Below are positions 5,212 through 18,644 of a stretch of 30,189 bases of DNA, one piece after another. The notes under the pieces were generated by a model. The model was not told the origin of the DNA, did no database searches, and worked only from the letters and a program-made list of their open reading frames with translations. Made by a program: the position numbers and the translations under genes. The DNA is from Candidatus Micrarchaeia archaeon (GTDB lineage Archaea; Micrarchaeota; Micrarchaeia; Micrarchaeales; CABMGC01): contig JBMFWW010000008.1 of NCBI GenBank assembly GCA_049964835.1, positions 1-30,189 of the forward strand. The letters are read 5' to 3'. Positions within the stretch are counted from its first letter, which is position 1; each line of letters opens with the position of its first letter.

Positions 5212-6042
5212 TTACTTTCCATTTCTCTTCATATCTTTTTTTATATTATACATGTTTATTTCTGCTAGATCAAAGAGCCTTTTGGCAAGCTCTTCAGGTG
5301 TTTTTTCAAGTATATGTACTGTTTTTATATCACTTATATTCGATACGCCGGATGCAAACGCAACGTTAAACGATATCTTATTTTCTTTTAATAATTTTTT
5401 ATTTTCTTCCTGATTTATTTCTAATAATTCATCTTTTATTCTACTTAAAATCCCTTGCGTGCTTTGCTTATCACAATTTAATATAAGTATAAATTCATCT
5501 GCCCCTTTGCCCTTTCTATATACATAATCGGATGTCCTAACAGTATTAGATATAGATTTGCCTAATCTCTTTATTGCTATATCTCCAAAGTGGTGTCCTA
5601 ATGTGTCATTAATATCTTTAAGACCATTTCCATCTAATACGGCAAAAGATATTGTTCTAGGAGCTCTTGCTTTTTTATTTCTCTTTTTATTATTTATATA
5701 CTGTTCAAACTCTCTTTTATAATTTAATAGAAGTTTATGTGAATCTTCAACATATCTTCTCTCATTACCTAATCCTGTTAATTCATCGGTCAAAAGCTTT
5801 GATCTTAAATCGGTATTTTCCTTGCTAAGCTCATTAACTCTTGTAAATATTTTAGTAAAAACATTAGCTAGCTCAGGATCAACACTTGCCTTTCTTATAA
5901 GCCTTTTAGCTTCAGCAACACTTATTATCGGATCTATCCTCCTTAAACTACCTAACTCCAATACTCTTATTTCACGTTCTAGTAAAGATCTTGAACCATT
6001 GCCGTTATGTTTTACTTCTCTATGTGAATTATCATTTACCAT
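5212..6042 (-). CDS. GGDEF-domain (diguanylate cyclase-like) protein with an N-terminal helical/coiled-coil region
   Basis: TDELTGLGNER, VLDGNGLKDINDTLGHHFGD, I-site RTSD, signature variant RKGKGADEF, FASGVS, AEINMYNIKK. Confidence 0.9.
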   Translation of the reverse strand: MVNDNSHREVKHNGNGSRSLLEREIRVLELGSLRRIDPIISVAEAKRLIRKASVDPELANVFTKIFTRVNELSKENTDLRSKLLTDELTGLGNERRYVEDSHKLLLNYKREFEQYINNKKRNKKARAPRTISFAVLDGNGLKDINDTLGHHFGDIAIKRLGKSISNTVRTSDYVYRKGKGADEFILILNCDKQSTQGILSRIKDELLEINQEENKKLLKENKISFNVAFASGVSNISDIKTVHILEKTPEELAKRLFDLAEINMYNIKKDMKRNGK

Positions 6043-6192
6043 TTAACCAAATATATTTATCTTTTTAGATATTTATAGTTTATGAATGGCCTCTAAATAA
6101 AAGAAGCTAACTTATTATAGTTAATTTTAGAGTTTTTTGTATATTTACTACATATCCGTAAATATCTCATATTTTTCATATTTCTATTAAAT

Positions 6193-6612
6193 TTAGTAAT
6201 ATTTGATCCGCATATTTAGACAAAATATTGCCATTAAAAACTCACGAATGGAAGATTCTGACCGGGAAGGAGGCATTTCTGCCTCCACGTTTGAACTATT
6301 CATCTCAACTGACTCAAGTCCATTCCCGCTTATGGTGCACTTTAGAGTTATCTTCTTAGAAACTCCACATCGCTCAAGCTCCTCACAGTTGTGTATTGCT
6401 TTAGAGATTATTGCAGAGATCCTTACCAACTCCCTGACCTTTTTATAGGTAGGTTCAGAAAATATCTTTAGAACATTGTACTGTGCATGCCATAACCTTT
6501 CATAAGAACCTTTTCCTATATGTAGGTCTTTGCAATCGCCCATTACATTTCTATTGATACTTTCCTTAAGACACTTCATAATTTTATCCCAGCCAGTTTT
6601 TCTTCCATTCAT
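6193..6612 (-). CDS. Orphan hypothetical protein (139 aa from MNGRKTGW)
   Basis: Strong RBS context GGTGAAAAAATG, identical to that before atpK (20965-20976), places the start at 6612 rather than 6663. Higher GC than its flanks. No recognisable domain. Confidence 0.5.
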   Translation of the reverse strand: MNGRKTGWDKIMKCLKESINRNVMGDCKDLHIGKGSYERLWHAQYNVLKIFSEPTYKKVRELVRISAIISKAIHNCEELERCGVSKKITLKCTISGNGLESVEMNSSNVEAEMPPSRSESSIREFLMAIFCLNMRIKYY

Positions 6613-6786
6613 TTTTTCACCCAGAAATAGCAAGACAATAAAGGATGTCAGCTCCCTAGTCATCTTATATAGCGTTTGACTGACGCATTCTGTAATCTTA
6701 TATACTATGGTAAAATATTTATATCTTACTAAAATGTTTAACCTTAAGTAGATAAATATATAAATATGTATATGAAAATAATATTA

Positions 6787-6840
6787 GCTGGAATAAAATC
6801 CGGCACACCCAGAAATAAGGGGCAGGTAAAACTGCCCCTA
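6787..6840 (+). ncRNA. Putative small structured RNA (two hairpins joined by an anti-RBS linker); alternatively a terminator or IS-end remnant
   Basis: GCTGGA-ataaaa-TCCGGC (U-G wobble favours the + strand), linker ACACCCAGAAATA, then AGGGGCAG-gtaaaa-CTGCCCCT. A TATATAAA box lies about 25 nt upstream (6757-6764). Confidence 0.35.
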
Positions 6841-6893
6841 ATAAAATGTTAAACTTGTTTGATTACAACTCTAAAAATAAGAATCAGATTTAT

Positions 6894-12155: not shown

Positions 12156-12479
12156 ATGCTTGATTTATTATTAACTACTTTTATTCTTTCTACAGTTATA
12201 TCTCCCTTATCTGCATTAGGAGGTTACATATTACTAGCAATACTTGCAGTAATACTAATTTATATAATAATAATATTAGGGAAATCAATAGTCAAGTTTT
12301 TAATAGGTTTAGTTGTAAACACAATACTCGGAATAATAGCACTCTTGATTCTTGATTTTGTTTTCTCATTTGGTATACCTTTATCACTACCTGTAATACT
12401 AGCAACAGCTCTTTTTGGGCTTCCGGGTGTTGGTGCAATAGCTCTCTTAAAACTTTTAGGCGTAATCTCATTTATTTGA
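12156..12479 (+). CDS. Pro-sigmaK processing inhibitor BofA-family membrane protein
   Basis: LVVNTILGIIALLIL...IPLSLPVILATALFGLPGVG matches the BofA family pattern. Three TM segments. Confidence 0.7.
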   Translation: MLDLLLTTFILSTVISPLSALGGYILLAILAVILIYIIIILGKSIVKFLIGLVVNTILGIIALLILDFVFSFGIPLSLPVILATALFGLPGVGAIALLKLLGVISFI

Positions 12480-18128: not shown

Positions 18129-18644
18129 GGAACTTGACAAATCAAATAACTTATGGTTTTATATAATTTGGAGGTTTTTCTCTTCTCCTTTTTCGTAGTA
18201 AAGATGGATTACTGTGAGTCTCCCAACAGATGCAACAAGCGCATCGGTCAAATGCCAGGAGAACGAAAACATGGAAATATACGAGTTAAAGAATAAAATA
18301 GTAGATGTTTGGGCCGCTGCACGCGTAACTGTGCAGAAGTATGGGCATACGCGGAAGTTTGCAAAACATCTTGTTGCTCTTGCAATAAAACAAATAGAGA
18401 ACTTCAACGGTGTTAAACTTGTTCATTTTCTTATTAATAATAAGATTGGAAGAATTCTCGGCTATAAGAAAACTTTACACGAATCAACGTTTTCAAAGGT
18501 TAGAGGAAGGTCAGATCCGATGACGTTTCAAGATTTGATAAATCGGATCGTTGAAGATATTTTCTTACATTCTCGGTTATCTTATTAGTTATTGAGGGTA
18601 CTTTTTGAAATTGACGAGGTGAATGAATGTAAATGTCAACTCCC
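18129..18644 (+). mobile_element. Internally deleted IS (IS5/IS4-like DDE type), non-autonomous
   Basis: Imperfect terminal IRs GGAACTTGACA (18129-18139) and TGTCAACTCCC (18634-18644), each flanked by TA. Encloses a truncated ORF with the transposase N-terminal motif RILGY..LHESTFSKVR. Confidence 0.75.
18214..18588 (+). pseudogene. Truncated transposase (N-terminal DUF772-like domain only)
   Basis: LVALAIKQIEN...LVHFL....IGRILGYKKTLHESTFSKVR. No DDE domain follows before the right IR. Confidence 0.65.

Follow-up and report, generated by a model that had tools for sequence, protein, structure and literature searches.

A GGDEF protein with a clade-fixed GADEF loop in Micrarchaeota and a neighbouring orphan gene with predicted small-RNA control

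We analysed a 30,189-nucleotide stretch of DNA (hereinafter the window), which constitutes an entire contig of a Candidatus Micrarchaeia archaeon, a tiny, symbiotic organism whose assembly spans 805,809 bases with 94.4% completeness and 0.53% contamination. It features a stand-alone gene for a 276-aa coiled-coil–GGDEF protein, P0001 (5212–6042, minus strand), identified by profile, predicted fold and Foldseek matches. What is new about this gene is its signature loop, R-x-x-x-G-A-D-E-F, which is fixed across a clade of 10 members. Upstream of it lies a conserved cassette, absent from the earlier note on this DNA, that couples an orphan gene, X, with a divergently oriented predicted small RNA. 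Based on the evidence laid out below, we tentatively interpret P0001 as an active diguanylate cyclase and consider X to be quite probably under RNA control.

The Pfam GGDEF profile (PF00990), proposed earlier as a check, recovers P0001 at 67.1 bits (E 2.1e-18; cut-off 23.8), and TIGR00254 does so at 63 (cut-off 37.4); P0001 further retrieved 31 matches among the sequences of solved structures. The same contig codes for an archaeal HemK2-type methyltransferase, recovered above its cut-off, and, per Pfam, for a histone fold and an HMG-CoA reductase. P0001 found matches in 17 of 41 genomes, one of them a bacterial-looking GAF–GGDEF. In 10 of these 17, its own genome included, we observed the gene order methyltransferase–rhodanese–GGDEF, with the GGDEF gene facing the pair, and because this order recurs a chimeric join at the locus is excluded. 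Canonical GGDEF genes occupy the same locus in G009, G022 and G083. The codon adaptation of the gene falls in the 93rd percentile among 467 genes, and its dN/dS is 0.17–0.49 over 10 pairs, with lower values (0.08–0.23) for the adjacent rhodanese. The codon use and dN/dS agree with the previous impression of an archaeal gene that is not a very recent import. The contamination or chimerism named as a potential refutation proved not to be the case: synteny and codon use rule it out, and the flanks are archaeal with low contamination across the assembly. Together these sequence features indicate a real, archaeal (Micrarchaeota), vertically inherited gene under purifying selection. In two genomes, the whole locus appears twice in near-identical form in the assemblies (G084: L068, L072; G005: L063, L065), probably due to mixed strains.

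All the GGDEF motifs recognized earlier are present in order at defined positions of P0001: D86-E-L-T-G-L-G-N93, D137, K142, N145, D154, R169-T-S-D172, R176-K-G-K-G-A-D-E-F184 and M264-Y-N-I-K268. We take D137, D182/E183, N145, D154, K142 and K268 to be the metal ligands, the guanine-binding Asn/Asp and the transition-state Lys; the segment bearing D137, K142, N145 and D154 maps to 5581–5634 (minus strand). R169-x-x-D172 (5527–5538, minus strand) together with R201 presumably forms the RxxD inhibitory site (I-site), with the first Arg and R201 each found in 10/10 clade members and the Asp in 8/10. The AlphaFold2 model (mean pLDDT 90.2) bears out the helical N-terminus proposed earlier, with a long predicted stalk helix (residues 56–83; 5794–5877, minus strand) that runs into the DxLT turn and, judging from the model, is likely a dimerisation coil. 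The signature loop (5491–5517, minus strand), whose atypical form had been correctly noted, is located at residues 176–184 between strands 173–177 and 183–188, and combines an insertion of two residues with the replacement of the second Gly by Ala. Thus, P0001 has the conserved metal, guanine and Lys residues and the RxxD site typical of class I diguanylate cyclases, but not their GG(D/E)EF loop with R-x spacing. A Ser at the guanine-binding Asp position, described as the signature of the cGAMP-making (Hypr) GGDEFs in PMC13725321, is likewise not what P0001 has: D154 is kept in 9/10 clade members, with an Asn in the remaining one.

The best Foldseek matches of the model are solved diguanylate cyclases, with SiaD recovered at E 2.2e-12. 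Pseudomonas SiaD (7e6g), the GCN4–WspR fusion (3i5c) and the coiled coil–GGDEF protein DgcB of Caulobacter (6ttr) share with P0001 the helical stalk, DxLT turn, GGDEF fold and RxxD motif; they differ in their canonical GG(D/E)EF loop and show only ~20% identity to it. SiaD, WspR and DgcB also belong to bacterial networks with phosphodiesterases and receptors, whereas no such known partner was found in the P0001 assembly.

Our examination of 66 loci from the order recovered the R-x-x-x-G-A-D-E-F loop in nine, comprising seven of the eight genes of the source genus and both genes of genus g34. These nine and one database protein form a single branch (SH-aLRT 89, not starred) in a quick tree of 101 GGDEF domains, whose backbone support is too low to speak for or against a single origin of all Micrarchaeales GGDEFs. 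Their closest neighbour in this tree (L111) has the insertion and keeps the Gly. Pairwise domain identity within the clade spans 26–71%; at this divergence, D137, K142, N145, R169, R176, G180, A181, D182, E183, F184, R201 and K268 are invariant in 10/10. A181 never drifts and is always accompanied by the insertion and G138. With the metal, guanine, I-site and loop residues so widely kept over this range, the sequence pattern reflects selection rather than decay. Not all positions are so constrained: position 273, that of the C-terminal phosphate-binding Arg, is not conserved in the clade, and the G006 and G010 versions are without N93, H150 and Y265. Altered loops are also seen elsewhere among the Micrarchaeales GGDEFs, namely RCGDRGDEF (L111), RPSGDEF (L134), RWRDEF (L136), ETGDEG (L137) and RRYMTGDEF (L142), a diversity that reflects repeated remodelling of this loop.

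The order as a whole features GGDEF matches in 113/248 genomes, with 82 above the cut-off. Short stand-alone GGDEF genes (frames of up to 340 aa) are present in 70/248, distributed as 50/118 in the source family and 20/129 in the other large family, so that, for this order, the earlier statement that GGDEF proteins are rare in archaea is not supported. The earlier note found no EAL, HD-GYP or PilZ partner in the window; this extends to the whole assembly (94% complete), where the EAL, HD_5, HD, HD-GYP, PilZ and MshEN profiles gave no match. Across the order, EAL and HD-GYP are each found in just 2/248 genomes. Three DHH proteins of the source assembly are candidates for dinucleotide turnover. 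A c-di-GMP-I riboswitch search of the assembly returned no match, but the control of that search also matched nowhere. The assembly contains no full-site GGDEF other than P0001. A 405-aa protein (G000:C18:5594-6811, minus strand; L002:1216-2433) combines a receiver domain (91 bits), the sole one above cut-off in the assembly, with a degenerate GGDEF of the form NGDDF (21.2 bits, below cut-off); it is a candidate receptor. Most of the weak GGDEF matches in the order reside in ~400-aa frames of a similar size. As the assembly yielded neither a dedicated phosphodiesterase nor a known receptor, P0001 would be an orphan cyclase. The occurrence of a cyclase gene in 70 genomes with almost no known hydrolase implies the existence of unknown archaeal turnover and receptor proteins. 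Separately, we recorded an 818-aa frame with both GGDEF and HD-GYP matches (G137:C21; L021, L152), which accounts for one of the only two HD-GYP matches in the order, and bacterial-looking GAF–GGDEF, REC–GGEEF and EAL genes in two bins (L019/L024 in G005:C5; L022 and L154 in G090), probably on contaminant contigs.

Archaeal GGDEF proteins have been described by Sidorov et al. 2026 (PMC13725321), whose set includes 20 from metagenome bins, most of which represent DPANN and class II archaea; several of the proteins showed cyclase activity in vivo, and one Micrarchaeota protein is listed in the supplement. A prior description in archaea, which the earlier note had named as a refutation, thus exists, and the novelty that the note had seen in an archaeal GGDEF gene is not supported. 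As described there, the set resembles P0001 in including short GGDEF-only DPANN proteins without a known receptor and in showing loop insertions (GQGDEF, RYGGDKGDEF and RIFHPSGDEF). The last is from the Micrarchaeota protein, which by eye is different from and longer than P0001. Unlike in P0001, the GADEF variant is absent from the main text of that study (0 matches), which also provides no systematic archaeal survey and counts hydrolases, receptors and deviant motifs among the questions still to be answered. Three archaeal loop-insertion proteins (two GQGDEF and one GGDKGDEF) are described there as without evident catalysis when assayed in heterologous systems, where some canonical versions failed as well.

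The earlier note had posed an active synthase and a c-di-GMP/GTP receptor as the alternatives for this protein, and we judge this to be the right pair; its further suggestion of a role in host attachment or sensing found no support. With confidence just short of even, we favour P0001 being an active diguanylate cyclase. P0001, which has no sensor domain, would dimerise through the 56–83 helix, bind GTP–Mg in both subunits and make c-di-GMP slowly under product inhibition; the two-residue insertion might loosen the β-hairpin and thereby accommodate an Ala at a position for which bacterial enzymes require Gly. The invariance of the catalytic residues, the dN/dS of the gene and the presence of canonical GGDEF genes at the same locus are in favour of such an activity. 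Against it count the inactivity of GADEF in Vibrio, the silence of the insertion proteins, the unconserved position 273, a dN/dS above that of the rhodanese, the loss of N93, H150 and Y265 in two versions and the near-absence of EAL and HD-GYP from the order. If active, a natural GADEF loop would overturn the null-mutant rule and show how an insertion rescues it.

Alternatively, the GADEF protein might no longer cyclise GTP and instead serve as a scaffold or sensor that binds GTP or c-di-GMP, with any c-di-GMP coming from the host or the environment. We regard this as possible, if somewhat doubtful. In Vibrio cyclases, GGDEF→GADEF has been engineered to abolish activity (PMC3359988, PMC10402110), making it a standard null in bacteria, and a review terms one natural GADEF protein degenerate. 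The three tested archaeal insertion proteins, the retained I-site and guanine residues and the negative phosphodiesterase search are all compatible with a non-catalytic binder. However, the metal ligands and K142 are equally invariant, P0001 has no output domain and the assembly offers no second intact cyclase, the C18 paralogue being below the cut-off; a pure c-di-GMP receptor would therefore lack an internal source of its ligand. A decidedly less probable option is that the remodelled loop alters the product, yielding linear pppGpG or another dinucleotide instead of c-di-GMP. The three clade-fixed changes (G138, the insertion and A181) are grouped at the metal site, and the order has almost no canonical c-di-GMP hydrolases even as the assembly codes for three DHH proteins; yet D154 is an Asp rather than the Ser marking the cGAMP-making versions, and the absence of hydrolases is not specific to the GADEF variant because the canonical GGDEF orthologues of the order also lack them. 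Finally, decay of the gene into a relic, or its origin as a bacterial contaminant, is most improbable: its somewhat relaxed dN/dS and its disappearance from the locus in certain genomes would fit, but this reading is already largely refuted by the synteny, dN/dS and invariant active-site residues, with host-like codon use and archaeal flanks also opposing it.

Gene X (P0121; 6193–6612, minus strand) codes for a 139-aa protein with a conserved ~115-aa core of three helices and a β-hairpin (model pLDDT 86) and an unconserved tail. It is present in 11/11 genomes of the source genus, with remote relatives in other genera, and has just 24 matches among 1.84 billion representatives. Searches of Pfam, PDB, PADLOC, PHROGs, ESM Atlas, BFVD and VIA-align yielded no usable match for its family or fold (best VIA-align match: Z 6.2, rmsd 3.4, 60 aligned), which does not itself show a new fold. 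Its codon adaptation is the lowest among the 467 genes. In five unsaturated pairs of ten, dN/dS is 0.16–0.30, indicating purifying selection; these values and the stops in nearly every other frame rule out X being a non-coding RNA. Some relatives start at GTG or ACG. The conserved part stops at a 3' hairpin, beyond which (window 6193–6285) the tails vary freely in length and sequence. In bacterial arfA, the transcript ends before the stop codon; by analogy, an X transcript ending at the 3' hairpin would lack its stop codon.

The DNA upstream of X is strongly conserved and displays back-to-back TATA-like boxes. One (6716–6723, minus strand), a putative promoter, is directed at X, with a conserved GCGT-N7-ACGC inverted repeat (6672–6686, minus strand), possibly an RNA hairpin or an operator, showing compensatory variants near the presumptive 5' end of its transcript. 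The other (6757–6764, plus strand), accompanied by a purine-rich BRE-like run, would serve as the promoter of a predicted small RNA (6787–6839, plus strand; model match 6783–6848) starting ~30 nt downstream. This RNA consists of hairpin 1 (6787–6804), a single-stranded seed, CACCCAGAA (6806–6814), and hairpin 2 (6818–6839). Its predicted target is the X ribosome-binding site (6618–6629, minus strand), to which it offers a 12-nt perfect complement in the source genome; across the source genus, the seed–RBS match is only 7–13 nt. The model matches 72 genomes, 63/118 in the source family and 9/129 in the second family; the single-contig genomes G042 and G069 are among the carriers. Rfam reported nothing at the gathering score in eight small-RNA loci (best E in the window, 0.99). 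By eye, we set aside a replication origin, CRISPR repeat, split tRNA, H/ACA guide and transposon end, as the element is single copy per genome and its G–U pairs favour one strand. The two copies of the seed/target motif could also be a DNA repeat.

In three of the five covariation measures for the small RNA, namely cells paired, double changes and score, none of 500 shuffles matched the observed value; the structure was derived from the same sequences, and the alignment registers hairpin 1 poorly (60% paired). The cognate RNA:RBS duplex averages −27.5 kcal/mol versus −24.2 for permuted pairs (0/20,000; full set of 16 loci, not a hand-chosen nine-lineage subset; kin not independent). The cognate target ranks first in 4/16 loci and between 7th and 14th (of 16) in eight g1 loci. 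When 1,560 start windows were compared in the source genome, X proved the best target, if narrowly (−25.5 versus −24.6 for the second best). Out of sample, all nine second-family loci beat 30 shuffles, and four of them combine a changed seed, CACCTGGAAAAC, with a changed target, GTTTTCCAGGTG. G067, which has an IS-like insertion at this place, retains neither the target nor X. Shine–Dalgarno-like motifs are found in only 27/467 genes of the source genome. No description of the cassette was found in the literature searched, which is weak evidence of absence. A covarying small RNA–mRNA pair in DPANN presents a testable case of bacterial-style antisense control of translation.

A second complementarity lies within X itself. 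A segment of its 3' coding region (6235–6255, minus strand) is complementary to the start-codon region (6601–6619), just 3' of a GC hairpin of the form GAGGC...GCCTC (6270–6285, minus strand) at about codon 110, which is recovered by pattern in 20/26 loci and missed by it in 6/26. Over the full set of 20 loci with the pattern, again not the hand-chosen lineages, the cognate fold-back pairing averages −24.1 versus −16.6 when permuted (0/50,000; kin not independent). In 15/20 loci the cognate fold-back ranks first or second, and in 16/20 the mRNA strand gives the stronger pairing; 3/20 show no cognate preference. An unguided scan exceeded all 20 shuffles in 13/24 loci. In the source genome, the X start codon pairs with 6244–6255, provided that the transcript extends that far. 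These patterns make it quite probable that X is subject to RNA control, wherein the divergently transcribed ~55-nt RNA would pair with the ribosome-binding site, the 3' region of the mRNA would fold over the start codon and X would thereby be kept translationally off.

Divergent layouts occur among bacterial type I toxin–antitoxin loci. The logic of those systems, as outlined in PMC8309996, is antisense RNA coupled to cis sequestration. By computation, the X unit shows both an antisense RNA complementary to the adjacent translation start and cis sequestration of the RBS region, features that the same source ascribes to zorO/OrzO, fst/RNAII and hok/Sok. The toxins there are described as typically hydrophobic peptides of <60 aa, with cytosolic exceptions, whereas X is a soluble-looking protein of 90–190 aa with a ~115-aa folded core. 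In contrast to the bacterial type I loci compared, the unit is archaeal, chromosomal and mostly single copy. The unit thus resembles type I control by analogy, and we say that it would work like, rather than is, such a system because X does not match the small hydrophobic toxins and its toxicity is only putative; it might nevertheless represent a type I toxin–antitoxin-like system in archaea. Within archaea, the RBS-masking sRNA162 of Methanosarcina, as described in PMC3510493, is likewise a small RNA that pairs with mRNA; the X unit differs in its fixed divergent RNA–gene pair and the added 3' fold-back.

The X/RNA unit often, but not obligately, adjoins the GGDEF gene. Of the 29 source-family genomes with both the RNA and a GGDEF gene, 17 place the two on a single contig no more than 4.5 kb apart, 11 place them on separate contigs and in one the pair is interrupted by contig ends. 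In 34 of the 63 RNA-positive genomes, no short GGDEF was found. X is kept at the locus without a GGDEF gene in G003 and G005, a gene is inserted between the two in G105, and the units are separated in G067, where X is lost. A short-leader promoter of its own is probable for the GGDEF gene, as suggested by a TATA-like box ~35 nt 5' of its start (6070–6077, minus strand) and by comparable matches 18–34 nt upstream in 6/7 clade genes examined. The RNA is therefore most likely not its direct regulator. Given the survival of X at loci without a GGDEF gene, the separations seen in G105 and G067 and the TATA-like box belonging to the GGDEF gene itself, adjacency through descent is the simpler reading. 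In genus g17 (L010:1143-1478, L013, L018, L038), a different small ORF, histone-fold-like by eye, is convergent with the GGDEF gene rather than upstream.

SiaC is a partner that activates SiaD. X might comparably be a protein partner of the cyclase that activates it through the stalk, with the small RNA gating c-di-GMP synthesis indirectly, a proposal we regard as quite unlikely. Their proximity in 17 of the 29 genomes and the fact that the top structural match, SiaD, is a partner-activated stalk–GGDEF would fit, as would P0134, a 413-aa in-frame X–linker–GGDEF ORF with a canonical loop known from two database records; but this may be read-through, its linker resembling translated intergenic DNA. 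The many RNA-positive genomes with no short GGDEF found and the persistence, separation or loss of X in G003, G005, G105 and G067 further argue against a partnership. The predicted complex of X with the GGDEF dimer scored 0.02, which we counted neither way. A more encompassing version of the RNA-control model, also unlikely, would see an order-wide, chromosomal type I toxin–antitoxin-like module with 5'–3' fold-back control, whose small-RNA family and protein fold would both be new, in which X acts in growth arrest or signalling and, in one sub-lineage, the module sits beside and gates an active GADEF cyclase making c-di-GMP without a known hydrolase or receptor.

Elsewhere in the window, the ORF at 18214–18588 (region 18159–18588) looks by eye like a transposase fragment, without a Pfam match; a similar-looking IS gene is present at the locus in G067. 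The window further codes for a HerA-like ATPase with a long C-terminal extension (1103–2767) and for a BofA-like membrane protein (12156–12479), recovered by Pfam above its cut-off in this archaeon.
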